Positions 8,720 through 26,267 of a stretch of 64,000 bases of DNA are shown here, in pieces (position 1 is the first letter of the stretch; every line of letters starts with the position of its first letter). The stretch comes from Fimicolochytrium jonesii (lineage: Eukaryota): contig NW_026515680.1 in NCBI RefSeq assembly GCF_025526975.1, positions 124,001-188,000 on the forward strand, in the 5' to 3' direction. The notes beneath the pieces were generated by a model. It saw nothing but the letters and a program-made list of their open reading frames with translations, did not search any database and was not told the origin of the DNA. Both the position numbers and the translations under genes were made by a program.

Positions 8720-10428
8720 ATGTCCAACATGGGTCTCGTAGTGAACATCCTCATATTCGGGGTAGCGGTGAGCATTCCCGCAGCGGTCAACTACGAAACA
8801 AAGGGCCAGCTGCCTGACCTCGCTGCTACAACATGCCTGCTGCTGCTTACGCTCATAGTGTTTCGCTTGCTCGGTGTGCCTACGCTCGTGGAGAGTCTGT
8901 CCCAGATTGACGAGGTGTGCAGCACACAACCTGAAGTTGTAGAACTGCAAAGCAAATTCGACAGCAAGCTTTTAGAGGAGGAGTGTGACGTTGTGGAATC
9001 GCAGGAAGAAGACGTGGAGGAAAATATATCAGTCTATGAAGAAGGGGAAGTGGTAGTAGAAGATGAGGCCGTAGAGGAAGCTACATCAAAAGTCGAAAGC
9101 AGCGTTGAACTCAGCGAGGACTCCGCCGCCGAAGAGCTTTCGGACTGCTCTACACCTGTCCCAGTCAGAAACCTCGAGAAGCGATTGGCACGCGCACCCA
9201 GCGACGTTTCCTCAGCCGACAGCGCCATCGCCGATATCCACGACCCATACATATGCCAGCTCCCAGCGCTCGAAGCGGAATTCATCTCGCTGGCCGATAC
9301 TAAACGATCACCTGAGTCATGGGAGACCATTCTTGCGCAGAGTTGGGGCAAGTTCTCGATCGAGATTCATCGACGGGTTGGCAGCCAGTTCTTGTTCCGG
9401 TACATTATGCATTTGGAGGCTACGCCTGAGGAGGCGATTGATCTGTTGGCGGATGTCACGCGGCGCCCTGTGTGGGATGAGCTGTGTGACGAGGCTGGGG
9501 TGGTGGAAAAGGTTTCTGACAGAACGACCGTTCAGGTAGGTTTGGAGATTGATTTGCGTGCATGTTCTCTCACATACGCATGGATCAGCGAGACTAATCC
9601 ACATCCCGTTTCGATCCGTAGTACTTCCGCACGAAAGCAGCATGGCCCACCAAATCCCGCTGCGCCCTCGTAGTCTCGTTCAACAAACAACTCTCACCGC
9701 GCCGCTACCTCAACGTCTCCAAATCCATTAACACACACCCCTCCTTCCACGCCAACTCCGCCGACGTCCGCATGATCGCCCACATCGCCGGTCAACTCGT
9801 CGAGCCGGACGCCGCAGGCCGCGACCGGATGTGCCGCGTCGTGCAGGTTGTCGATGGGGATCTGGGCGGATGGTTGCCGAAAAGCGTTGTCAATATGGTC
9901 ACCATCAACGCGATACCCGTGGGCATGCGGAAGGCTAACAAGATGTTGAAGGGGATTGAAGTTCAACGGGATGTTTCGGAGGTTATGACTGAGGCTGAGG
10001 GTGGATTTTATCAGGCTGGTAGCGATAGCGACGCGAGCAGCCAAACTACACCGGTGTCTGCACGCAAGGGCAGGATGAACGTAATCACTAGCAAGGCGAA
10101 AAGCTGCCAAACTACACCGGTGTCTCCACGCAAGCGCATGATGACGGCATCCGTTCCCATCTCGCCCGTGACTGCAATAGCAGCCAAAGCGGCGCACATG
10201 CAATCCGATACCATCGCTACTGTCTCCACCAGACCAACCACAGAACAACACACCGAATCATCATCACTCCCAACGAACAAAGCGCTGACCACCCGCACAA
10301 CCGCCCAAGCAATCCTCTTAAAACGCCCCAACGTCCTCCGCTTCATCCTCACCATCCTCCGGCGATCACAGCCGTGGATCATCGTATCGATCTTGCTTGC
10401 GATCGTCACCGGGCGATTCAAGCGATGA
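8720..10428 (+). CDS. START (StAR-related lipid transfer) domain membrane protein
   Basis: N-terminal hydrophobic helices, then acidic linker. START-type motifs 'DLLADVTRRPVWDELCDEAGVVEKVSDRTTVQ|YFRTKAAWPTKSR' and 'VDGDLGGWLPKSVVN'; intron ~9536-9620; C-terminal hydrophobic anchor. Confidence 0.82.
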
Positions 10429-12220
10429 GCTCGAAATACATGTCCCCATACCGCCCACCCAGGTCAAGGGCCCACGTATTCCCATTGACTGCTAGAGCAG
10501 CAAAACCGCCCCAAACCTGTCTAAGACGTTATATACCCTACTCCCAGCCAATTTTGAAAGTACACTACATTAGTATTGGTCGCGTCCCCGTCTCTGCGTT
10601 CCCCAGGTTCTCTTATTTTTGTGCGTCGCTTGGCCGACATCCTTTTAGAAGTTCTGTGAGGTATACTTGGCATGTATTCATTCAGTTACATGGCAATAAA
10701 AATGCAAGTTCTATGACTATGAATTAGGTTGCGAAGAAGGTATGAAATTGGTGAGCCAGGGGTGCTGAGAGGGAACTAAACTCTTACAGCCCGGCTCTAT
10801 CGACGAAAACGGAAGTGTGAAGATAATAGAGACCTTATGTTCCGCTCATATAGAAGCCGTTCGAAAATTGCGGCCACACCGTAACTGCTCCGCGACCGTC
10901 GAAGGCGAGTCGCGAGAGAGGCAAGGCATTCGTCCCGTTTTCACGGTCGTCCCCCCCACCGACGTAAGAAATCGATTCCCGCCGGAGCCCCATTTCAGCT
11001 TCTTCTCGCCATCGCGTGACTCGGCAGTCTGAAGCTTCACATTACACTTCACATTACACATTACACATATGGACGGTTCCGATGTGACGCTAGGATCGGT
11101 GGCATCAATTGACCACCTAGGCGCGCTCGCTTTGTGCCTCAACGTCCTGCTCCCTCAGATACCTCATCCTTTGTTGTGCATTCATGTCGCCCCTCAGTAA
11201 GCGCGTCAATCGCATCTTATTGTATGCCGTGAAAAAAAGAGGGAACTTAGCCTGACATTTCCAGCTGCATCAAAATCAATGGAAATCGCGGCACATAATA
11301 CACAAAACGAAAAGGAAAGGAGGAAAAGCCTGCAACAAACACAAACACCTGATGCGGGACTTACATCCTTGGGCTGGATGGTCTCCCTCCCAGCGGGGAC
11401 GGCGGCCACATTCACGTCAGACGTAAGAGCTCGGGTGGAGGCAAGCTTGATGCAGGATGTCGGTCGCGTCCATTGACCACCTGGGCGCGCTTGTCTTCTT
11501 CTCGTTCACCCAGACGTTAGCTCCGCCGGCTTTAAAATACCGGCATATGAACGACCGCGGCACAATGGCACCGGCCCCCACAGGGCTATTGTGATGAAGC
11601 GTTTCCGCTGCCGCAATCTCGTTAGGGTCGCGACGGCCGAGGCCACCAGCGACGCTTTACTGTGGGCGCCTCTCCATCGCAGCGGCCGGCCGTCCTCATC
11701 AAACATCTTATCCTTGGCGCAGGGAGAACATCCGTAGTTAACTTTTCGGCTCTGGTCTCCCGCTCTGGTCCATGAATATCACCGCATTGGCGCAAAAAAT
11801 GTCAAGGCACGGATTAATGCCAGGAAAGAGTTGCGTGATTGTGATTGCAATTGCTGCGAGCTCTTTTAGCAACTAGAATGTGGCAGTTTCTGCGTCTTGC
11901 ATATCCGTCCCAGCTCCGATACAATGGTTTCCTGCATCGTAGTAAGCGCATCTGCCTGATCATCGTGGTCGTCTTCCGGCTCGTCGGGATCCGCTCCTCC
12001 TCGCATGTTGTTTGTAACCGAGAGAAAAAGGCGGAATGAGGTAAGCCACGGCAAGGGCATGACATTTCGCCACCGTCCTCCAGCAAGCATACATTCCTGT
12101 ACAGTAGTGCACATAGCAACCCCATCGCCAACCCTTCGAAAGCGGCCCTATGCAAGAATAGATAGCGAGTAGAAATCCAGATTTTTCCTTGTGGTTCGGG
12201 AGAGCGATATTTGATCGAAT

Positions 12221-12840
12221 CTACAACTCGGCATCCCCGATTTTCCTCTTTACAGAATCCCGTACTTTGTTTTGCATGTACATTGAATGCACATAACGAT
12301 TGCCCCTCGAGTAGTCGGTCACTGAATGATGAAGAAGATCGGCTCGGAACAGGGTTAAGGTACCCACTTCCTGCTTCAGAACAACACCTGCATCGATGCG
12401 TTCAAAATCTCCCCCATCGCCGAAGTCGCCAAAGGTGTACTGAGTGGTGAAACCCTTGTCCTCCACATCGAAGTGGCAATCAACTGTCGGATTCCAAATG
12501 TGGGTATGTGATTTCTGCCAGACACCCTACTCCGCGTGTGTTCGATCGTATCGCACATTGAGAACAATCTGCAATGCCTACGTGAGGCAATGCTTGTCTC
12601 TGAGGTGGGAAATTACCGTCACAAAGAGGGCAATGTGCCAGCGTTCCAAGTGCGTGGCGCTGATCATCTCAGCTCAAGCAGATGCGAACCCTGCCATCAT
12701 CGTTGAAGGCTTCCAAAGGAACATAAAGACTTCTAATCGCAGCTCGGGCACGTCCACCTTGCTTTTCCGCGTGTACGAATCTTCACACTTAAGTACCTTG
12801 ATAGCGTTTGAAAGTGCCCGCCCGTTATAGAGCGCCTTGT
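12221..12840 (-). pseudogene. TET/JBP-family 2OG-Fe(II) dioxygenase, disrupted
   Basis: NPTVDCHFDVEDKGFTTQYTFGDFGDGGDFERIDAGVVLKQEVGTLTLFRADLLHHSVTDYSRGNRY: HxD at 12467-12475, GDF..GG, distal H and R. Same frame upstream carries in-frame stops. Confidence 0.75.
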
Positions 12841-14635
12841 TCTTCTTCTTCGTCAGATTACGGCAGTGGTCGTCGTACTGCCTCGATATCCTGTGCGGAT
12901 CGCCCCGTAATCGAACAACGGTTGCGTAAAAGAACAGCCGTCGCGGAAATAATCTTCACAACGTGTCCAGGGCCCTCTGCAAGGTCGCGCTCATCACCAC
13001 GGTAATGAGGAGGGTTCCCTTTCCCCTTGCGCTTCGTGGTGGCGGTGCGCAGGCCAGCCATGAGCAGGTCCCATTCCGCCGTCGTATCCAACTCCTCGTT
13101 GGCCCACCAATTGTAAGGAAACTTCTCCCCGGCTTCGAGCCATCCACAGACATCACATCAAACTTTACCAAACGAACGTTTCCTGATAACTCTGCTGGAG
13201 ATCTCGCCGGGGTGGTTGCAGCTGTTACTTCCGCCGGTGTACCGGGTTCTTCCTCGACAGGATCGCTGAAGAATGTGCAGAAAAACTGGGTGACGAGCCC
13301 TTGTTCCGTGCTTGCGCAGAGCACGGCGATGTCTTCGATGTTCTTGCCCAACACGGCCCAGGTGTGGGCTGTCGGGTAGGTCGTTGCGACATCCTGGGGC
13401 ATAGCTGCGTCAATGGTGGAAAGAACTCTCGCCTTGATCACCAATAGCATCGCATATGGGCAGCGCATTGTCATGGCGATTGGCAAGGCACTTTTTCGGC
13501 AATCTGCAATCTATCGATGGCGTTAATATCGATGATCTGACCGTTGTTTGCTTGGGCCACGAACGGCTCGTATGAATAGGGCTCGGATGGATCGACGTTG
13601 GGAATCTCATCATCCATGATGAACATTGTTGCGCGATCCACAAACCATCCATGCTCGTTCAGCTTAGTGTTTCTCTCGATAACGCTGATGTTATACTGGA
13701 CGGATGGGAGCGCTCTCGAGAATGGTATCTTGACGAAGAACTCGCCAACGATTTTCATAATGACCTTTCTTGAAAGGTGAAGTCCCGTTCGTCTCGTCAA
13801 CTGAAGATGACCTTGATGAAAGGAAGATTCCCTCGCACGATGACATCAACACGGCCGCGCTCTCATCCTTGCTAGAACTTGATCGAGCTCATATCGACAT
13901 CCACAAGTGTAGAATATTGGTTATCGCCGTAAATTGGTTGGTTGTGCTTGCATCGTCTTCTTAGCTAGCGCTCGTTTCCCTGACGAGGAAGCCGTCAAGA
14001 TCGTCGTTACCGGCCTCGTGATCGTTGCGGGTGCAGCCTGAGCTATGCGAGTGCAGGGGGACTTCGGCCCCTTTCGCTCAAGGCTGAGAGATGCTCTGAC
14101 CGTGTCGACCATCCATTGCTATCAAAGCAGGTATAGATCATCGGCAGTTGAGAACGATGTCGCTTCAGGAGAAGCTCGGTACCGATGTGGATGGTCCAAT
14201 AAGAGCGTCCGCTGTGACCTACTAGCTGGCCCGCCAGGTGTCGCAGCAGCCCCAGGCGCACCACAAGTTTTCCCCAATCGGACGATCTGTTGCTGCATTT
14301 CGGGCTTGGCGGCCACATTGCATATCGGAATTTCTCCGACAACATCGAGTTTGTGCGCTGTGGCAGAGAGGACAGTATCGTAGCTCGCGCTCCACGGTAA
14401 GAGCCCTTTTCTTGGCGGAGCTGATCAGACTTTTGAGCTCGTCGTCCGATGAGCACGACCCCATCCAATCTCCCGATCCCGCAATCTGGGTGATCGATCA
14501 AATAGGTGGAGTAGCGTTCAGAGTAGCGTTTCTCCTGGGCAGCAATGCTCTTGCTTTGCGCATGGCCCGTGCTGAATAGAAACTATGTTAAGCAACTCCA
14601 CCACAAACTTGAAGTTGTTGACCACAAAGTTCTGC

Positions 14636-14968
14636 TTACCCTTCTGTTTCGGGTTTAAATGCCGAGACGTGAATTATTGCGTCCGCAAAGTCGGACCACT
14701 GTTGTAGGATTTCTCTCGTGTCCTTGACGTCGTATCCGCAGTCATTGAGCGCTTCTTTGATGGATTTGAGGTAGATGCGGGGGTATTCCGCTTGAAGTGT
14801 CCAAGCTAGTCGCTCGAGACGGGCTTCATTCTCGCGCCTCTTCCTCTCGATTTCGGAGTCTTCGGCAGTTAGCTGCCGTCGCCCTTTTTTCGAGGAAACG
14901 CTAAAAGGGTTAATAGCCAAGGCTCCCTCAGCGCGGCGAGCAATGGCTCGAGGTTCCCTCCGAACCAA
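14636..14968 (-). pseudogene. Fragment with CUE-like ubiquitin-binding domain
   Basis: LAWTLQAEYPRIYLKSIKEALNDCGYDVKDTREIL fits the L..(M/E)(F/Y)P......I...L.....DV......L pattern. Confidence 0.5.
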
Positions 14969-17493
14969 GGCGGTGGTCTCGGCGGGCTGTTCCTCATCAC
15001 CGTCGTAGAATTCCTCCTCCTTATCATCACCCTCCTCTTTAACACGCGCAGGACTGTCGTCCTCATATTCTTCGACCCTTGATGCGAGCCCAGATCATGT
15101 ACCCGGGTCCATAGAGGATCGCAATCTTGGGGCTGCAAAGCCACGTAAGATAAAGGCAATGCTTGTCGTTTATGAGTGCATAAGGCACCGAGACCGAGAC
15201 AGCGCTTAATCCCGCGATCGGGTGCAGAATCTCTTCACCGGGCCGAAGAAGAAGCATGCCCCCCCCCCCCCCCCTCCCCCGCTCCCGGAAAGAGAGTGGG
15301 GGGGGGGGTGATTGCTCTGATCGTAAGAAGACGTAAGCGATGTGATTCCGCCATCCTGGTGTATACTGGTTGGTGAGGTCGAATTCTTGCAAAGTCTTCT
15401 ACCCGTCGGCGAGCGCGGGGTCCATGGACTTTTGGTCGTGCCATGTCGATAGCGTACCATTTGCGGAGAACGCGGGTCATCCTTTCGCTGGTCGGAGGAA
15501 AGCCCGTATCCTTGTTGAAAGACGGCCAGAATGGGCACTAGCTCTCCTTCTTCGTGGCCGTACACCAGGATATTTCCGGCCACCTCGCGGTAGCCAAGGG
15601 CGTCCTCCTCAGCGTTAGTGCGGAGATGGGCGTCCGCGGGGAGACCATCTGCTTCGGTGGGTTTCCTGCAGAGATTGCGCTTGACGTTGAAGTTGCTCAC
15701 GTAGATCTGCGTCTCAGCAGACCATCTGGCTAGCTCATTGGTCAAGCAGGCTCCGTACCGCTTTTCGTCCATGTCGCAATGGGCGCTGAAGAATCGTTCC
15801 ATCAGATTTGGCGTGGACACCATGGCAGTGTACGGTCCTGGCTGTCGCGTAGATGGCATGACGCAGAGTGGCTGTTCGAGATGTCGGTGACCATGACTTG
15901 CTGTGCTTGCAGATGTATCAAGCTTTGGCGATCAGAGTAAATCATCGGAACGGTCAGCCAATGAGGCTTCGATCGTGGATTGTGCTCGTAAGTTGTGAGG
16001 AATCTCGGGAGCTCCCCCTCCTCCGGCTCCGCCTCCACGGGGCGGAGCACCTGGACCGGCATCCCCACCGTTTCCGTCACCGTCACTCTCTTCATCCGAG
16101 GACGACTCTTCCATGTGCTTCTTTAAGTACGCGAGTCGTTTCTTCAATTTATCCCTCTCGTTTCGCTCGGCCGCGTCGCTGCGGCGCTTTGCTTCCTTCA
16201 TCTTTTCCTTCGATACACACTCTTGCTCTTATACCTCGACTCCGACACTGCCTTGCAACCCAGGTAGTCCGCCTTAACCATCAACGCCTCGAAAGACCCC
16301 TTCTTCTTCTTTGATCTCGAGAACCTCTCTTGCGTCGTCGCCAGATGCTTTGCCAGGTTTTTGTGGTTGTCTTTCCGGTACCGCAGCGTCGCAATCTCGG
16401 TCGCCACTCGCAATGCTTCTCTTACACGGTCGGGAAGTCACTCGCGGCTGCAGCGGAGGATGCGCGCGTCGAGCGCGTAGTTGGTTTCGAGGGTCCCGGC
16501 GGTGGTACAGCTGGAGGAAAGCTCGGCTTCAGAGTCTTGCGGGCTGTCTGCTTCTTCTTGCCGTCTTTGCCGTCCCCGCTCTTTCTTGCCACCGTTCGCC
16601 ATACTTTCGCGTATCGACTGGTTGTCTGGGTTACTGGAGTTGAGTATGGGAACGTTGGTCTTAGCTCTCTGGGGCGACTGTCAGACGTCTGTTGTTTTAT
16701 ACTTGCGGCGTTTCCCTCGCCAAACATTGGGGCCTGTTTTGTTGGAGAACGTCAGCCGTAAAAGTGGTCGGGAATATGACTGGGTTGAGTATGGTCCTGT
16801 GCAAGCGGGCACAGCCCTTGAACTGGAGCTCTTCTTCGGAATCTGAATTGGGATCGTATTCGGAATACGTGCGTCGTCGATGTGGTGAAAAGAACAGCAG
16901 GATGGTTCTTATGATTCGTAATGTCAAAATCCTCACATTTAACGAGAGCTGAGAGTTCTTGTTCGCCGGTATCTAGCACAATTGGGGATATGGGACGGCG
17001 GTGGCTACTTGAGCTAGCTCACCGACATCTTCTTTTCTGCCATAAGGAGGTATGCATGTAGCAAGTGATGCAGGAGGACAGCGAGCAGTTGAGATCGAGA
17101 TCGGGCTGGATCCTTCATCGCCTTGCTGATATTGATATAAAAGCCCGTCTGTTTCCCCGTGCTCCTAAAACCCGATGTGGCAGTGCTCTTTTCCAGCTTC
17201 CGTCGTCTCCGTCGCCACCGTCGTCCATACCAGCCGCTAGTGCCTCATCGACTAGCTGAGTAGCCGGCGTCGTGATGATCCACTCCATATGTGGTAAACC
17301 CTGTCCTCGACGTGCGGTTGCAGGCTCGTCCCTTTCCATCTGATCAAAGCCTATTCCCGTGTAGTCGGTTAACTCGTTTTCGAATGCTTGGGTTCGGGCG
17401 GGTGCTATACCAGGCGTACCAACCGGCTGCATTTACTGTCCCCTCGACAACCCTATTCTGGAAGGCCTGCAGCGCAGCGGAGAAGTCGCCTGG

Positions 17494-17587
17494 GCCCACA
17501 GCACTCCAGTGGTGTTGCAAGCCCAGAGCACTTCAGTGGTGTTGCAAAGCCCCCGGCACTTCAGTGGGGTTGCAAAGACCATAGCAC
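17494..17587 (+). repeat. Tandem 27-28 bp repeat, 3 copies plus a partial
   Basis: gcccacagcactccagtggtgttgcaa / gcccagagcacttcagtggtgttgcaaa / gcccccggcacttcagtggggttgcaaa / gaccatagcac. Confidence 0.9.
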
Positions 17588-19263
17588 GGTACGTTGGTTG
17601 TCAGATTCCATAGCTCTCCAAAGTCCTTAGGCATTCCTCGGGATTGCAAAGTCGTCTGCACCGCCAGGATCCTCGACAATCGCTCCCGATGGTCTACGCT
17701 TTCCCCCACAAGTCGGGCGTGATCGGAGAAAGCGCAGACCATTGGCAGACCTGCCGTATAGACGACGGGAACAGCGCATCGTCAGCACCCCACGCCCCCT
17801 CCTCTCCTTGAGTGATGTCGCCGCTCTCCGTCTCCCCATGCGAGCTGGCCTCCTCTGTCTCCATGCCGGAGATCTCCTCCTCCTCCGTCTCCTCGGCCTC
17901 GTCATCCTCACTGGGGGTATAGGTTGACCCCCCAAGCTCGCTTTCCCTGCTGGCAGATGGCGAGGTCACGGGGGCCGTCGACCTGGTGGTCCGGCGAGTT
18001 GGTGACACCGGTTCGGGGGAGGTTTCCGGAACAAACTCCGTGCCTTCCGACTCTGACTCTACGCTGGTCACCTCGTCGGACAGGACCCGTTCAAAACGAG
18101 TACGCTTACAAGGGGTGGGACGAGCCATGGTGAGGGTTGGTGCGGTGGAGAGGGGATGTGAAACGGGGAGTGTAGCGATCGCAGCGGAAGTGAGGAGGGT
18201 CGCGAACGGGAAACCAAGGTACGATTCAATGAGATCACAGGCATCCTCGATGGACTCTGCGCTAAGCAACCGCTCCTGCAGTGTTTGAAGCGGTCCCATC
18301 AAGCCTCGGTCTTTGATGAATTTCCAGAAAAGCTTGGCGAGTTTCTGGCAATCGGGTGCCGATGAAACTAGGCCTTCTCCATCCAAGCATTGGAGAAGCC
18401 CGCCGTCCCGGTAGCATTCTCATATGCCCTTTACCTCTGCAGTTCCTCCATTCGCCGACGCTCCTGCTCCAGGCGCTCCTTTAGAGCGCGGGTTGTAGCC
18501 GCCCTAACCCGGCGTCTTTCCTCTGCCTCAGCTTGCTCACGGGCGGCCTGCTCTCGCAATTCCGCCATGCGTTGGGTGACCTGCTCTAATTCGGCTTGGA
18601 GGGCGGCAGCCTCGGCCTCGGAGTCGTTGGTGTGGTGGACGTTATTGCTCATGTTGATGTCAAGTAAGATGATGTATTGATGTATGTACTGATCGGATGA
18701 GGAGAAGAGGAACTGAGAGAACCACCCCGCCTTTTATAGACTTTCCCCCAGGCCGCCGTCATTTGCCCCCGGATACAAGCCCCCACTGCTCATCATCCGG
18801 ACGGTCCTCATCCTCCAGGTTGTAGTAGCGTCGCAGTGTGTGGACACGTCATCAAGTACTTGGACAGCTCTTCCCTCGTAGATGCCGGCCGACGGCAGCT
18901 CACATCGGCTTTGTTTGAAACGCGCGTACGAGTTTACGTCGGTGAGGATAGCGCTATTTCCCATACTCATGGACGAGCTGAGGGCGTGTCCGAGTGCTGA
19001 TCGGATGGAGGCCCGAGGAGGGTGTGCCCGTTGTGCCGAAGCGCAGGCAAGGAAGCGGTACGGCGCAGGATGTGACGGCCTGTGTGTTGCTTGTGACGGC
19101 GCATCCACTTCTTCTTGTGTTTGCAGTTGTAGAATCCGAGTTTTGAGACTTCTGTGTCATGGGGTTCCACAGGGGGCCCGTCCTCTTCATAACCGGGCAT
19201 CCCGTAGACTTTGACATTCTCGTAAGAGTCTGGAGCAATGCTGTTGAGGGCATGGATCCGGTT

Positions 19264-19692
19264 CTCCTCCCAGTTGGCCAGGATCCGTCCACCGTAAATT
19301 GTCATCCGGTGAACCAACACATTGCGAAACTGTGCATGCGTCAGTGCTACCAGAATTCGCTTGTTCATTGGGATCAATGGATTAGGTTTTCGCTTGACCC
19401 AGACGTGGAAGTCAAACTTCGACAGTATGACTACGTCAGATTTGGCGAGGAAGTCGGCGGTGTGTTTGTGCATCAACTTGATCTCCTTTTCCAGTCTACC
19501 GCGGAGCTCCTGGACCTGCTCCCGTTCAGATTTGCATTCCTGTTGCTCTAGGCTTGTTTTGAGGGAGGGAATGCTGTGACGCAGTTCATCGTATCGCTGG
19601 CGTGTCTCAGCAAGGTCTTCTGCTGTGACAGCCCCGCTGCCCATGTAGACCGGAGCGAAGTGGTCTGAATCGTGTGTGATTACGATTGGCTC
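19264..19692 (-). pseudogene. Fanzor/IS607-TnpB-like RuvC nuclease fragment
   Basis: RYDELRHSI...ELRGRLEKEIKLMHKHTADFLAKSDVVILSKFDFHVWVKRKPNPLIPMNKRILVALTHAQFRNVLVHRMTIYGGRILANWEE follows the Fanzor2/TnpB pattern (R..I...V.E.H...A.FL....D.I.L.KF....M.......R.L....H..FR..L.....G..V....E). Zn ribbon and RuvC-III are absent. Confidence 0.72.
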
Positions 19693-19693
19693 T

Positions 19694-19950
19694 GACGATG
19701 ACAGGATCGGTCCAGATGTCGCCGACTCCCTGCAAATCCGTGACCAAATCCTCCTGGCCCGAGAACTCATACGTCATATGAGTGAAAGCATGGGGCGTAT
19801 TCCTATAGTTTTTAGTGTTGATACCGCCCCCGTTGGAGGAGTGACGTTCGAACGTTCCGGCAAGGTACTCGTCGAGTGCGTACCATTTGCGCTCGCTGAC
19901 GGATTCGGGAACTAGGGAAGCGGCCTCTCCCGTTGCAGTAGCTGCGAGGT
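19694..19950 (-). pseudogene. Alpha-kinase (eEF2K/MHCK family) catalytic fragment
   Basis: Frame without a start codon (not in the ORF track): WYALDEYLAGTFERHSSNGGGINTKNYRNTPHAFTHMTYEFSGQEDLVTDLQGVGDIWTDPVI, matching alpha-kinase 'RNTPQAFSHFTYE.S....LV.D.QGVGD..TDP.I'. Confidence 0.85.
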
Positions 19951-20333
19951 TAGGAGGCCCAGAGGAGCGTGTGGTGTCCAGTCGCTAGGGCTTTATTGCG
20001 ACTGGACGTTGGCAAAACCCTGTTCGGTGGGGGTTTCCTTGACATCGATGTTGGCGGCGCGGGTAGTTTTCGGGTTTTTATTGGGGCAGGCTGTTGATGG
20101 AGGAGGTGGGGGACGTGGTTGCTGCTGCTCCTGACAGGAGGAATCCAACACCTCATAATGCGCTGGTTGCTGGCAAGTGATGAAGACATGGCCGATGGCA
20201 TATCTGGCCAACTGTAGCTCGTTCCGGGTCACGGTGGCGGGCCAGAGCTTCATGTAAGGAAGAAAAGTATGACGTCAACGGCTTATTGATAAACGTCTCA
20301 TGGCTCAGCATCGTCCGTACTTCCTTCCGTCGT

Positions 20334-20558
20334 TCACGCCGTTCGTTTCAGTTCAGCTATCTCTTCCTTTAGCTTTGCGTTCTCGTCTTCCAAAATCTTA
20401 AGTCTCTCCGTATGTTCCTTTACCTTTGCGTTCTCGTCATCCAAAATCTTAAGTCTCTTCACAACAACCGTATGCATCTCACTAATCATACTGCCCATTT
20501 GATGATCGGCAACAGACGCATCCGAACTTGCTCGGAGGGGACAGCCGCTCAACATCAA
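20334..20558 (-). CDS. Short coiled-coil ORF with internal 51-bp duplication
   Basis: KRLKILDDENAKVKEHTERLKILEDENAKLKEEI; duplicated tttgcgttctcgtc(t/a)tccaaaatcttaagtctct. Confidence 0.35.
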   Translation of the reverse strand: MMLSGCPLRASSDASVADHQMGSMISEMHTVVVKRLKILDDENAKVKEHTERLKILEDENAKLKEEIAELKRTA

Positions 20559-21136
20559 AGGTTCGCGACGCAGCTGGTCAATGGAACCGACGAGTCGCAG
20601 AAAATAGCTCCTCCACTTCCGCTCCGATTACATGTCAACCCCACTGCGGATACACCTGCCAGGAAAAAAAAGCTCACCGCGTCTGCAGCACACTTCGCTC
20701 GAATGGCTCATAATAGCTTGTCAAGTACGCCACGCACCCCAATGACATTTCCTTCAACAGCATGAGTGCGGTGAAGGGCGGACGTCGGTATGCGACGTGT
20801 AATCCGTAGCACACTCCGAATCCAAATCCGAAGCAACTCAGAGGTACTGTTGACCAGTAGAGTCTCTTATGCTTGAGTTGCGCACGATGCGAAAGTTGTG
20901 GCAAACTTGGCAACATTTGCTGCAGATGTGCTACACGAGAGGGGATGCCTTGCCGGAACACCTCCACCTTAACTTGCAGTCTGGTGGCCTCATAGGCATG
21001 TCAGTTGGAATCGTAAAAGAAGTGGTTTCCGTTGACCAAGTCGACCCAGTAAAGGACAAAGTGATGGGCACGCGCTCCGTTTGAGCACCCTCGGGGTCTT
21101 GTATGGACGGATGATGGCCTTCGTGGCGTAGTGCAT

Positions 21137-21805
21137 ACCGCCCATCCCGAAACAATCGTCACGCTTGTCCATGGACACCTGCGACAGCACGTCCATGTCG
21201 GTCAAGGTGATCCTCTTGATTTCCTCATACAAGACTCGTGTCCCGCCGTCAATTTTGATTCCCTTGGGAACAATGCAAGAGATAAGCTGGCAGCGGAACT
21301 TGTACGTCTTGGATGCCGGGGGCGGGGCGAGAGGGGTGTCGCGGCCCACATCGTACGCCGGGTCGCTGACGTCGTAGGCGTTGCTTCTCGGATCCCTCTG
21401 AAGTTGGCGTACAAGACGCATGTCGGTTACCCTCAGCGTCTGCCGTGCCGCATGGAACATGGGCAGCCAGGCGTCCGTTAACAGCGAGATGAGCATATCT
21501 TCCGCTCCCACCTGAAGGGCCTCGAGGGCCCCCGGCTGCCACATGTGCGGGTCCGTCAAGCTCACATTGTTGTCAAGTTCGCGGACAAGACGGCCGAATG
21601 GAGCCCGCGGGATAATGGGCTCCGTTCGGCGCTGCTGCTGCCGTATTTCCCGTAGAGCAACTGATAAACAGGTTGATGGAGACGGAAAATGAGATGCCTT
21701 GCTTTCGCTTTCAAATCGGAGCAAAAGAAACAAAAGCAGAAGGATACTCACGAGTTCCAGACGATAACGACAAGGACGACCCCCACGACCCCCGCGACCT
21801 CGACG
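21137..21805 (-). pseudogene. Divergent histone H3 fused to an eroded histone H4-like domain (intron 21751-21661; 1-nt deletion before the intron)
   Basis: RPCRYR(P)GT|LALREIRQQQRRTEPIIPRAPFGRLVRE..WQPGALEALQVGAEDMLISLLTDAWLPMFHAARQTLRVTDMRLVRQL is an H3 fold. Downstream in frame: ISCIVPKGIK..GGTRVLYEEI-KRITLTDMDVL..CFGMGG, resembling H4 IQGITKPAIR..GGVKRISGLIYEET..KRKTVTAMDVV..LYGFGG. Confidence 0.8.
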
Positions 21806-21994
21806 TCAATGTTTCGACAGCCACCTACTTGCACATCGGGCACCTTCCAAGTGCTTCATTGTCTTGGAATAGCAAGTTCTGGAAGCCTCCTCTGCCTCGA
21901 CCTCCGCGACGACCTCCGCGACGACCTCCGCTCCATGATGATCGTCAGGTCCCTCTTCATCGCCTCCTGATCGGTACGCATGGCCTTCAGGTTG

Positions 21995-22056
21995 TCACCA
22001 AGCTCCTGTATGGCGCTGGTCATGTTCACCAAGCTCCTGCATGGCGCTGGTCATGT
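21995..22056 (+). repeat. 31-bp tandem duplication that frameshifts the minus-strand coiled-coil ORF 21995-22336
   Basis: tcaccaagctcctg(t/c)atggcgctggtcatgt x2. Confidence 0.85.
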
Positions 22057-23116
22057 TCGCGAAGGTCTGCATGATGTCGGAGGATGCAAAGGCCCGGAGC
22101 TGATCCACCGCCGCGAGGACCTCTTTCTTGTTTTCGATGATTTGTGCCAACAGCTCGGTAGTATTCATTGTCAGCACGTCGAAATCCCGCTTGGTCTGGT
22201 TCCGGAGGGATTCCATCGCCGCAAGCATCCTGGCGGCACTCGTCGCCATCTTTCTTATCATTTCCTTTTTCTCGTTCGATGTGTGGGTGGCGAAATCATC
22301 TGAATCTTGCTTGATATCCTCCTTGTGCGCTTGCACTCCTCCCGTACTTTGTTCAGGATGGTCAGGACCTTGTCCTCCACAAGACCGCCGAGGTTCCGTA
22401 CCATGGTGCGGAAGTACACGAGCGCCAGGGGAGATTTTTACCGAACAACCTCAGCCGCCGTGGCTAGCAGGCGGAGAGTTTCCTCACGGATCGCGTGCAT
22501 ACGGGCGCGACGTTCAGCCGCCTGCCATTGCCTGCGTTCTTCTGCCGCTTGCTGTGCCTCGTGGAGGAGGGCAGTGTCTTAGCCAGCGCAGCTTGAGCGC
22601 TGGCGGACGCGGTCGGAGGGTGTGAAGACAGATTATCTTTCACCAGCATCGATTTGGGTTTCGTCACCCACCCCGCTCCGAATCAACATCAGGCCAAACA
22701 CAGTGAAGCGAAAGGATGAAGGTGAACCCCAAGGAATGCATCCTCAGAATTAACCTTCCTCCGTCCGCTCATCCGGGCCTCCTGCTGCCGAATGTCGGTA
22801 GGTGTGGGAGGTAGAGGTGGGAAACGATCGACTTCCAATTGGGTTTTCGGGAACTTCAGCGCAGCGTTTTTAACCCAAAGCCCCCCCCCCCCCTCCATCC
22901 TGGATCATAAGTTTGCATACGTGCAAGCCTGAATACATAATAATTGCAGGTAGATGCGTGTGTGAAATCCGCATCCCGATTGATCAGTTGAAGATCCGGC
23001 TCGGTGATCTTGAGATGGCCCAGCTCTCCATGCTGAAATAGATTCGGGTGATTCGCTTTGTCTTCATCTGTCCACTTCAGATCGGCTTGCCGGCCCTCCC
23101 CCCTCGCCGAATGTCG

Positions 23117-23458
23117 TCAGAACATTCGAACGAGGGATACGAAGCACCCATTACATATGTGATGGGTGCCACACGAGCTGACAGTGCGGCACGAGATCCA
23201 AGTGCCGCATATGCAACAATTATGGTTGCTGCGTCCCGGGTTGAAGTAAATGGGCCAGCGGTCCCTAAGAGAAACAGTCAATACCCGTTTATCAGTTGGA
23301 TTACCCCTTCGCCACACCTACCGACAAATGGCACAGCGTGGTTGCCTATGCAAAAAGGTCACCATCTCCTGGACGATGCACGTGCGGCAGTAGAGGTGCC
23401 CGCACCGACCGCAGTGGTTACCGGGGTTGGTTAGACACACGGGACAGGTTGGGGGCAT
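23117..23458 (-). CDS. Small C3HC4 RING finger protein with a second partial RING-like motif (intron 23321-23265)
   Basis: Spliced product MPPTCPVCLTNPGNHCGRCGHLYCRTCIVQEMVTFLHRQPRCAICR|DRWPIYFNPGRSNHNCCICGTWISCRTVSSCGTHHICNGCF; intron gtaggt...attgac...ttag. Confidence 0.75.
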
Positions 23459-26267
23459 TTTGTCGGTGTGGTGGATGTTGAAGAAGAGGGGTGTGAAGTT
23501 GACTGTTATGGGGACGAGAGTGGAAGAGTTGGACAGCCTGACTTTTGGACAGCTCGAGTCGGGGGAGTGTTATCCTTGTATCGGCTCGGGAGCATGACTT
23601 CCTTGATGTCTCTCCTCCCCACTCGGTATGGTCGGCCTGTCTGAGGTGTCCAGGCTTTGCAACGGGCCCTGCCCCTTGATTGTGTCCGTGTCGTGCGTAA
23701 GCTTCCCCCCCTTATATTCTGCTATTTGCTCCCTGATTGTATCAGCTGCTCGCTGGATTACGAACGTGAAGACATCTGGGGTGTCGGAAGCCCATCGTTG
23801 CCTATGGTCGGACTGGTTGAATTAGTGCTGAGCCCTTGCACGACGTCGGGCCTTTGACCATCGTCCCTGCGCGGCCGTTTCCTGGGTGGACCAAGTTCGT
23901 CCGACGATCGTTCCTATGAAGTAACAACGTGAGCGATTGAGATGTTGGCCATGAACACCGTGGTGCTCCGATATGCGTACTGAGGTAACTGTTCTCGCTC
24001 TGTGGGCGGAAGGCCGATGTCGCTATTGCACTGAACGCATCGCTGCATGCCATCTGTCGCTGTTCTCGAAAATATCCTCGTCCTCGTTGATGACCTCGGA
24101 CGAAGGGTAACGAAATCCCTCGACAACCGTGTCCTGGAAGGACACGCCCGGGTGCTCGACCGTGGAGTATACGAAGGTTCCGCAAGTTCTCGAGATGTTC
24201 TGAGGGTCTGGCATCCACTTGATTTCCAAGTCTGTGAATGCTGTTTCCTTCTTGCGAGCCGCCTGCAAGTCCGCTGTGCGGAGCCCCTGATGTTCCCTCA
24301 GTAATGACCACATCGTGGTACAGATGAGCCCAGGATTGTAGAACCTTCCTAGATTCACAAAGCGATGACCTGGGACGAGGAGACTCCGCATGGATCTCAT
24401 CGGCAGGTGCCAGGTCGATGTGTGAAGATACTCTTAAGGGCGTCTTGAGAGAATATACGACCATGTCAATGTGATCCACTGACGGATCACTGGGCACGAG
24501 AGCAATTCCAACATCGGCGGGTGTCCGAGGTAACGATCCGTTATGACCGAATTCAGCTTGTGACCGAGGAAAGCCAGTTCGAGCAACGGGAAGACGATGC
24601 CGGTGTACTTGTACCATACCTCCCCTTCGGGCTCAACCTTTCCCGAGGTCACATAAGTCAGGAAACTTTCTTTCTGCCAAGTTTCAGATATTTCTGCGCT
24701 TGCTTGACGAGTCCTGCATTTGCAACCCGAGACGGACTCACTCGCAGAATCGCTGGCACATACCCAGGGACGCTCCTTCTTCACAACAGCATCGCCGCCT
24801 GTACCGATAAGCGTGGAAAGTGCCCAGAAGTTGTCGCCGAAAAGCTCCCATAACGCTTCCCGCTGCTTGTGGGTCATCAGCTTGTGGAGGCGTAATTTTG
24901 TCAGATGCGAGATGTAACGTTTGAGCTCGCTGAATGTGTCTCCGTCTAAGTTGGCGAGCGAACGGATGCACTTCCCGCGAAGGCGACCAATGGTCGCGAT
25001 GTCTTCCGAAGCGATGATGAAAGACCTCACGGCGTCTCGATTTCGTCGGCACACCGCAAGGGCGCGGCGGCGGTGCGACTGGCTCGGGGGTACTGTCCTC
25101 ATGAAGGGGCGGCGTCTCCTGAGTAGGCAGAGCATTCGGTTAGAGGCAAGTGAGGTCATTTATGCGCGACTAACGTGCCTACCGAGCGTTGCTCTTCCTT
25201 TTCCTTTGAACTAGGACCGGTGGTCGGACCAGCGGCTCGTTTACCCTTCCCCTTTGCGAGCGTGGCAAGAGTGGTGGGGGTAGCAGCGGAAGTATGAGCC
25301 ATACTGAGTGTTATGGCGAGTGTAAGGAAGTGCTTATGGAGGGAAGCGACTGGTGGAACTCATGACATGCGGTATCAAAGGCCCAGGGGAAGAGAACGCT
25401 TTTTGCAGTTGTTAGACCGCGTTGTCCCCACCAATTTTTTCGCTGCAAGCGCTTGAGAAGTAGCGCTTGAGACGTGGTGGAGAGAGTGCATAGCTTCAGC
25501 CGCTGGCTGTTGCTGGAACAGACAGCCCGATTGAAGTTCAGAATGTGCTTGGAAGGGGAGGCCATCCGCCTGTCGGTATGGAGTGTGCCAACGGGCGTAC
25601 AAAGCGGGACACAGTCTTGGTTGAGGAATATTCGACCGAGAACCTCTTGATGCCCCGATCGATCGCACAATTGACCGTAGGAGCGCTGCGTCATGGCGAG
25701 CGGTCAGAGAGATATTGTAATGGGTCTCTCCAGCGAGGACGGAGAAACGTTGGATGGACCGCCCGATGTAGATGAATTTTATTGACTGACACCTGTCGAA
25801 AGTTGCAGAGTGAGGCTCGTGTTTCCAAGAGGAGCAACAGGCTCGTGGGGTCGTTGTCTGGGAGAGCTCTCCCTATAGTTCTCCCGGTCGAGAGGGTGTT
25901 CAGATAGAGGGAGAAGTATCGCTATGGCTGCCAGTCGGTCGTAGATCGGTCTGAGATGGGGTTGTTGCGAAGGCCATCATCGAGAGGGGGGAGCCACTAT
26001 TGAATGCGAGGTCGTGTGCCACATGCGCCACGCCCGCGCCACTCGCTGTGGCTTGTTTCTCCCTTTCGCCTCTTTCCGCCCTCCCGCTCTGTGCGGTCCC
26101 CTTCTGGCTGGAAGTTTTCTGAACACCCACCCACCCCCCTTGGAGACTCATTGGACCGCCGCATACGGACTCATAGTGCCCACCTGCAAGGCTCCAGTAC
26201 TCCTCCCACAGAAAAGTCATAAGCGGGTCTATCTACAGTCCCTGGTTATCACAACACAGTCGCAACA

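Follow-up and report, generated by a model that had tools for sequence, protein, structure and literature searches.

The 267-aa open reading frame at 18967-19770 on the minus strand (P0001) is most probably the middle of a chytrid-type Fanzor2 gene, a dead relic that would be unable to bind guide RNA or to cut DNA. Positions are those of the window, which is the whole 64,000-nucleotide stretch of Fimicolochytrium jonesii DNA that was analysed. Only about 110 residues of P0001 are firmly homologous to Fanzor2, and sequence comparison indicates that aa 62-168 are a real bridge-helix/RuvC-II segment of such a protein, with scores far above chance. A dead transposon relic is the most likely explanation because the parts that bind guide RNA and cut DNA are lacking. 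Taken as a whole, the frame is probably a pseudogene product, chimeric or decayed, which gene callers treat as one protein. Its parts and closest neighbours are:

18967-19770, minus strand: open reading frame of 267 aa (P0001); the place and all the motifs quoted for it by the sequence-only reading were verified
19057-19263, minus strand: coding-like tail, aa 170-238 (codon-position GC; global test 11/1000 shuffles, dependent on the end point)
19264-19587, minus strand: Fanzor2 bridge helix and RuvC-II, aa 62-169, with H101, S117 and E168 (identity to P0002; viral-only HMM)
19588-19692, minus strand: aa 27-61 ('IVITHDSDHFAPVYMGSGAV...'), degenerate RuvC-I or alpha-kinase tail (spacing; weak scores both ways)
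19697-19903, minus strand: fragment of an alpha-kinase C-lobe, read in a different frame (Pfam PF02816, E 4.3e-20, profile positions 84-160 of 185)
25577-25669, minus strand: short broken frame with a probable Fanzor2 RuvC-I remnant ('AIDRGIKRFSVEYSS'), which retains the Asp (viral-only RuvC-I HMM)

Homology of the core to Fanzor2

A phmmer search with aa 1-227 of P0001 against 1.84 billion representative proteins returned the query itself and three matches: P0002 (E 4e-13), the metagenomic protein P0003 (E 4e-5) and P0004 (E 5.5e-4). The best of them, P0002, is an intact-looking Fanzor2 of Fimicolochytrium jonesii (KAI8826719.1), to which aa 62-160 align ungapped with 42 of 99 residues identical (42%). 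P0002 and P0003 contain a Cas12f1-like_TNB domain and P0004 matches a Fanzor2 profile. Moreover P0005, the full-length cluster mate of P0003, matches the mimivirus Fanzor2 9b0l with an E value of 1e-29.

An independent test was provided by a profile built from viral proteins only. Seventy-eight viral stretches with a RuvC-III pattern gave 33 frames of at least 250 aa, and the 32 distinct Fanzor2/TnpB proteins among these were made into an HMM with zero chytrid rows. P0001 came top among the 1544 frames of the window (E 6e-8, profile positions 307-410 of 467), and its aa 61-168 scored 29.9 bits while the maximum for 1000 shuffled sequences was 8.3. In addition, a four-row profile had 9b0l as its sole significant match in the PDB (E 6.5e-15).

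The structural comparisons gave weaker signals. In the ESM Atlas P0001 goes to TnpB clusters by its features (0.91-0.93), and the low-confidence Atlas model aligns to TnpB over aa 21-219 (TM 0.55-0.66). The AlphaFold model, made from four rows, is poor (pLDDT 47.5, both flanks mostly below 50); with it Foldseek returned nothing at E<=0.001, the top three being Cas12f1, Cas12m and TnpB, and the best VIA-align result was Cas12p with Z 5.9, level with coiled coils. The proposal that this is a Fanzor2/IS607-TnpB bridge-helix/RuvC-II fragment is borne out by phmmer, by the viral-only HMM and by the identity to P0002. For aa 27-169, where the lack of any RuvC/TnpB profile or structure match had been named beforehand as grounds for giving it up, both profile and predicted-structure matches exist.

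The family membership of P0001 is seen only by transitive or custom profiles, since Pfam, NCBIfam and phmmer against the PDB gave no TnpB family match. P0001 is a one-member cluster in NCBI/UniRef, and no full-length relative was found among 277 candidates or the 1.84e9 representatives. Word-based searches recovered the query alone (1/277 and 1/6853), and a three-row alignment gave 4/7998. No related locus was confirmed in viral contigs, nor among 162 pattern matches in metagenomes (0/162).

Catalytic residues

Jiang et al. (PMC10530073) report that in Fanzor2 proteins Pro or Gly replaces the canonical RuvC-II Glu and that an alternative Glu, about 45 residues further on, is essential. A 33-row alignment contains the viral set without five near-duplicates, which leaves 27 of 32 proteins; 25 of these viral rows have P and 2 have G in the canonical column, where P0001 has S117. 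E168 sits 51 residues past S117, within the viral spacing of 41-61 (median 49), and matches the alternative Glu of the relatives in two alignments; the 33-row alignment prefers D181. The suggestion that the canonical Glu is replaced and that a downstream Glu at 'WEE' takes its place was therefore upheld, with D181 as the choice of that one alignment.

The column of the RuvC-I Asp holds T32 (in T32-H-D) and not D34, so that P0001 has no in-frame RuvC-I DPG motif with a catalytic Asp. Two of the three catalytic motifs are not recognisable, nor are parts for RNA loading or target recognition. A six-frame search of the 64 kb window gave no match to the Fanzor N-terminal HTH/REC/WED; the alpha-kinase fragment lies upstream, where REC/WED would be expected. 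The copy had been described as inactive and this agrees with our results: the catalytic Asp is gone on either reading of the 5' flank, and REC/WED and a recognisable Zn-ribbon/RuvC-III are absent. RNA-guided DNA cleavage by P0001 is accordingly predicted to be absent.

The 5' flank and the probable upstream RuvC-I remnant

The residues before the core (aa 27-61) can be either a degenerate RuvC-I, with DPG read as THD and the Asp lost, or a frameshifted alpha-kinase tail. For RuvC-I speaks the distance from T32 to H101, which at 69 residues is the canonical spacing (viral median from RuvC-I to His 68). Local RuvC-I HMMs scored 'IVITHDSDHF' at -2.3 bits, with 678-1000 of 1000 shuffles as good, and a PSSM was equalled by 154/1000. 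An anchored global test against 30 family segments (L044 was excluded as misaligned) was equalled by 22/1000 shuffles and 10/1000 window-ORF pieces (p about 0.01-0.02, best register), and the signal drops to 123/400 and 58/400 when the start is shifted by three residues. Of the claim that 'IVITHDSDHF' is a RuvC-I, the spacing and the anchored test stood, while the local HMMs were blank, the score depended on the start and the Asp was lost. The motif may thus weakly be read as RuvC-I, and an alpha-kinase tail would fit about as well.

The alpha-kinase fragment, which has matches to eEF2K, TRPM7 and MHCK-A, overlaps the 5' end of the frame and is firm up to WTDPVI at 19697; 'IVITHDSDHF' starts 11 bases later. 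Reading through with one X gives an ungapped alignment to TRPM7 across the junction, although the Pfam alpha-kinase match does not extend into the read-through. Against 72 metagenomic alpha-kinase tails taken from 80 loci, 160 and 197 of 1000 shuffles were as good; the figures were 125/500 for the read-through and 21/500 for aa 31-48. To take 'IVITHDSDHF' for nothing more than an alpha-kinase tail relied on the one ungapped TRPM7 alignment and was not upheld by the comparison with the 72 tails.

At the junction of the alpha-kinase and Fanzor sequences (19677-19708, minus strand) lie two adjoining 16-base units, 10/16 alike by eye, which encode DPVIV and EPIVI in different frames. An old duplication could explain them, as could microhomology at the junction.

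A probably genuine RuvC-I remnant, and a better candidate than 'IVITHDSDHF' as far as sequence can tell, is found 6 kb upstream of P0001 on the same strand (25577-25669). Neither it nor the alpha-kinase fragment had been noted in the sequence-only reading. It is the second match of the full viral HMM in the window (E 0.04) and the top one for three RuvC-I profiles. The viral-only RuvC-I HMM gave it 12.8 bits (maximum of 40 shuffled windows 7.4) and the all-row HMM 14.8 bits (maximum 11.0), so that in both cases 0/40 reached its score. It shares 14 of 30 residues with P0002 139-168, and 1/30 shuffles did as well in a frameshift-aware score. The remnant has stops on both sides and its Pro is replaced by Arg. 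It probably represents the front of the Fanzor2 gene to which P0001 belongs, since displaced, or else another dead copy. Inspection by eye suggests that the resemblance to P0002 may go on beyond a frameshift ('RRMASPSKHILNFNRAV').

The 3' flank and the omegaRNA

The motif [TS][TS]xx-C4 zinc finger-RD is given for Fanzor2 and IS607-type TnpB (PMC3627910). P0001 does not contain it and has no match to Pfam PF07282, so that at most a decayed trace is present. One Cys is left in the tail and the column of the RuvC-III Asp holds His. Local profiles detected no Zn-ribbon/RuvC-III in the tail or elsewhere in the 64 kb window, and a custom local Zn-ribbon/RuvC-III profile was equalled on the tail by 93/1000 shuffles. 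Nevertheless the codon-position GC of the tail (0.59/0.37/0.65) resembles that of the core, and in a global comparison of aa 169-238 with 28 TNB/RuvC-III segments 11/1000 shuffles and 18/1000 ORF pieces were as good. A hand-picked register of 32 residues against Zn-ribbon/RuvC-III was not equalled (0/500), and the global signal is gone when the end point is moved by 5-12 residues (61-269/400 shuffles). The tail had been called unrelated sequence that replaced these motifs. The blank local profiles speak for this, and the global likeness, which depends on the end point, together with the coding-like bias speaks against it; replacement is possible and decay in place appears about as likely.

No Rfam family reached the gathering level in the window, and none of 14 windows downstream of the frame showed unusual RNA folding (z -1.0 to +1.8). 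Loss of the omegaRNA, as had been supposed, is consistent with these data. Opposite the tail of the frame, at 18882-19214 on the plus strand, lies a Cys-rich frame of 110 aa without a Pfam match, which is probably a shadow frame.

Chytrid relatives

The relatives that could be named are chytrid proteins: P0002 and, from Phlyctochytrium bullatum, P0004, P0006 and P0007 (these include KAJ3104757.1). P0002 keeps all three catalytic residues (D141, E347 and D383) and the Zn ribbon, whereas P0001 does not. Its predicted fold (pLDDT 71.6) has ApmFz2 (9b0l) as the top Foldseek match with E 3e-9, compared with E 3e-3 for SpuFz1 (8gkh). Because P0002 retains the three residues and folds like ApmFz2, the lineage is assigned to Fanzor2 and not to Fanzor1. 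Membership of Fanzor1 was considered and rejected, P0002 being nearer to 9b0l than to SpuFz 8gkh and the profile finding 9b0l only. The gene model of P0002 may lack exons, since its first ~110 residues fold poorly.

In the chytrid relatives the RuvC-I Asp stands 138-215 residues ahead of the bridge-helix His, against a viral median of 68, and the extra length is a long helical insertion predicted between RuvC-I and the bridge helix. A tree built on the core segment with 36 rows (L068, P0003 and P0007 left out) has P0001, P0002, P0004 and P0006 on one branch with support of 99/96; these relatives had been chosen as best matches of the query, and one motif-selected viral set served as outgroup. 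The view that the fragment marks a divergent lineage is thereby supported. At 0.80 the end branch of P0001 is on a par with the 0.78 of the intact-looking P0002, which argues that the core shows no extra decay.

The P. bullatum models P0004 and P0006 have Fanzor2 pieces fused to a DHHC palmitoyltransferase and a ribosomal S4-family protein. These fusions are probably annotation chimeras that arose from insertions beside host genes.

The genera Fimicolochytrium and Phlyctochytrium are absent from the searched supplements of the Fanzor surveys PMC10432273 and PMC10530073 (one scanned file aside). A full-text link between Fanzor and Fimicolochytrium was limited to a mention in a reference list, and the supplements of PMC10711439 and of preprints may list these proteins.

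The surrounding block

The window is eukaryotic and its genes have short introns. P0001 lies in a block of short broken frames between two host genes, the one on the right being CBF5/dyskerin (Pfam PUA, TruB_C_2) and the one on the left, at about 8720-10428, START-domain-like by eye only. The block and its recognisable pieces, apart from those listed above, are:

10700-26200 (limits approximate), no strand assigned: block of about 15 kb of short broken frames, mostly minus-strand, between two host genes
12224-12526, minus strand: weak remnant of a TET/JBP-like 2OG-Fe(II) oxygenase (Pfam Tet_JBP E 0.051; PHROG 2OG-Fe(II) oxygenase E 2e-5)
21401-21664, minus strand: divergent histone-fold segment, H3-like by eye (Pfam PF00125 E 5e-20)
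23324-23446, minus strand: RING finger segment (Pfam PF00097 E 1e-4, above cut-off)

The block was scanned with 117 frames of at least 72 aa against Pfam and 30 frames against PHROGs. The Pfam matches above cut-off were alpha-kinase, histone fold and RING, all on the minus strand. No transposase was found (Pfam, 117 frames) and no viral hallmark gene (117 frames against Pfam, 30 against PHROGs), and a pattern search for the alpha-kinase gave 0 viral loci. Serine-recombinase motifs were absent from the window apart from one chance RVS match. Terminal repeats with a target-site duplication were not above chance (2 in the block against 0-2 in 10 shuffles) and no ends were identified; there are three Helitron-like 3' hairpins, none of them at the edge of the block. 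Its GC and dinucleotide content are host-like.

The block probably represents a mobile element that carried cargo and has since decayed, or else the nested remains of several. A carrier element can be deduced from the content only, because neither ends nor a target-site duplication nor a transposase turned up. From the earlier proposal of a large element a foreign-looking block of about 15 kb thus stands, without those three features.

Several other details of the block were recorded. The oxygenase reading at 12224-12955 (minus strand) is interrupted by stops, and the histone-fold gene at 20990-21805 (minus strand) has a long C-terminal extension. At 24026-25159 (minus strand) two long, coding-like frames of 241 and 136 aa are separated by a stop; they have no match in Pfam or PHROGs, and for ORF 24437-25159 the Atlas contained nothing at or above 0.9. 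Tandem duplications are present at 17494-17575 (3 x 27 nt), 20364-20458 (2 x 44 nt, 51 spacing) and 21995-22056 (2 x 31 nt), and a direct repeat of 32 nt (88%) lies towards the left edge (11096-11127 and 11460-11491).

Origin of the fragment

In the Fanzor2/TnpB family an omegaRNA-guided nuclease is described as cutting empty sites and so maintaining its element (PMC13565253). The ancestor of P0001 would have worked in the same way: an omegaRNA from the 3' end of the element would have guided a RuvC nuclease with rearranged Glu to the empty donor site, and cutting there would have kept the transposon. The 5' side would then have been cut off, with the alpha-kinase fragment in place of REC/WED, and the Zn-ribbon and RuvC-III would have decayed or been replaced. 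Truncated and decaying within a mobile block rich in cargo, the gene may have left a frame that is annotated as a 267-aa protein. The neighbours are fragmentary too, the alpha-kinase covering 84-160 of 185 profile positions and the TET-like piece being broken by stops. There is no stop for 61 codons ahead of the core and for 99 behind it, for which the chances in random sequence of the same composition are 0.08 and 0.016. Against a plain relic can be held these long open flanks with their weak in-register likeness, the undiminished core and the Atlas model that aligns over aa 21-219.

The open flanks and the undiminished core also speak for a domesticated, nuclease-dead Fanzor2. In it the catalytic Asp residues and zinc ligands would have been lost from the whole RuvC/TNB region (aa 27-238) while selection kept the frame and the helical core; the bridge-helix/RuvC-II scaffold would now bind a partner or nucleic acid, perhaps in a product spliced to an exon of the alpha-kinase. 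The frame is open across the full span, the flanks are in register with RuvC-I (69 against 68; 22/1000) and RuvC-III (11/1000 shuffles), the tail has a coding-like codon bias and the core is no more diverged than that of P0002. Nevertheless the flank signals rest on hand-set boundaries and vanish once these are moved, no relative with the same flanks exists among the 277 candidates and 1.84e9 representatives, all neighbours are broken, and the AlphaFold model is poor in both flanks. In addition there is no REC/WED, and therefore TldR-like RNA-guided binding would be impossible from this frame alone. Domestication is for these reasons regarded as highly improbable. It is scarcely credible that P0001 is an exon of a working intron-split Fanzor2, or of an alpha-kinase-Fanzor splice fusion, with the piece at 25.6 kb as its upstream RuvC-I exon. 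Fanzors do have introns (PMC10530073), that piece precedes P0001 in the correct order and shares its strand, and by eye a GT..AG pair (19683-19620) joins the alpha-kinase and Fanzor frames in phase. However, its donor GTAATC is poor and the scan gave no branch site; the pieces are 6 kb apart with other genes between them in a genome of short introns, a TNB/RuvC-III exon is missing from the 64 kb window, and the RuvC-I piece is bounded by stops and has Arg for Pro.

A different question is what carried the gene. Histone-like, RING and oxygenase genes would fit a giant virus origin, and such pieces in the block would suit a decayed endogenous giant virus that brought the Fanzor2. Moreover Fanzor2 is reported as enriched in giant viruses (PMC10530073), and giant-virus insertions are described from zoosporic fungi, F. 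jonesii having a capsid gene (PMC13533422), although the main text of the latter paper contains neither Fanzor nor TnpB. The absence of viral hallmark genes from the scanned frames, the host-like GC and dinucleotide content and the closest relatives, which are chytrid nuclear and not viral, make this origin improbable. It concerns the carrier only, and the copy would be dead either way. A dead relic of a chytrid-type Fanzor2 is thus retained as the preferred explanation.

As Fanzor2 has already been reported as broad in fungi (PMC10432273), a dead fragment is of little importance in itself and P0001 is an ordinary remnant of a known family. Its use is as a pointer: the chytrid Fanzor2 lineage to which it leads is divergent and is predicted to have a long helical insertion behind RuvC-I, and P0002, the F. 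jonesii member in which all three catalytic residues are kept, could be tested as a nuclease.

Comparison with known systems

Fungal IS3EU transposons are known to carry TET/JBP together with alpha-kinase as cargo (PMC12730594); that report covers rusts, mushrooms and Pezizomycetes and mentions neither chytrids nor Fanzor. Like these TET/JBP-carrying transposons the block combines TET/JBP-like and alpha-kinase pieces. Unlike them it has no DDE transposase and no TAYGG..CCRTA inverted ends (30 bp) with a 6-bp TSD, the best IS3EU-type end pair in the block being 16/30 without TSD.

TldRs are TnpB-like nuclease-dead repressors that work with an adjacent guide RNA (PMC13565253). P0001 is like them of TnpB-family origin and has lost catalytic residues, and unlike them it is a singleton without guide, REC/WED or a conserved family. 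A literature search over titles and abstract openings gave no description of TldR-type domestication in eukaryotes; domestication of P0001, if true, would be a eukaryotic parallel to it.

The closest comparison is with ApmFz2 ('TnpB-like protein L79' of Acanthamoeba polyphaga mimivirus, 9b0l) and the IS607-type pro-Fanzor TnpB. Unlike these, P0001 has no HTH/REC/WED, intact DPG, YTSKT, C4 zinc finger or DRD, no TnpA was found in its block, and signs of an omegaRNA are absent from the Rfam and folding scans. What P0001 has in common with them is the bridge-helix/RuvC-II pattern, with a residue other than Glu at the canonical site and the alternative Glu about 50 residues further on.
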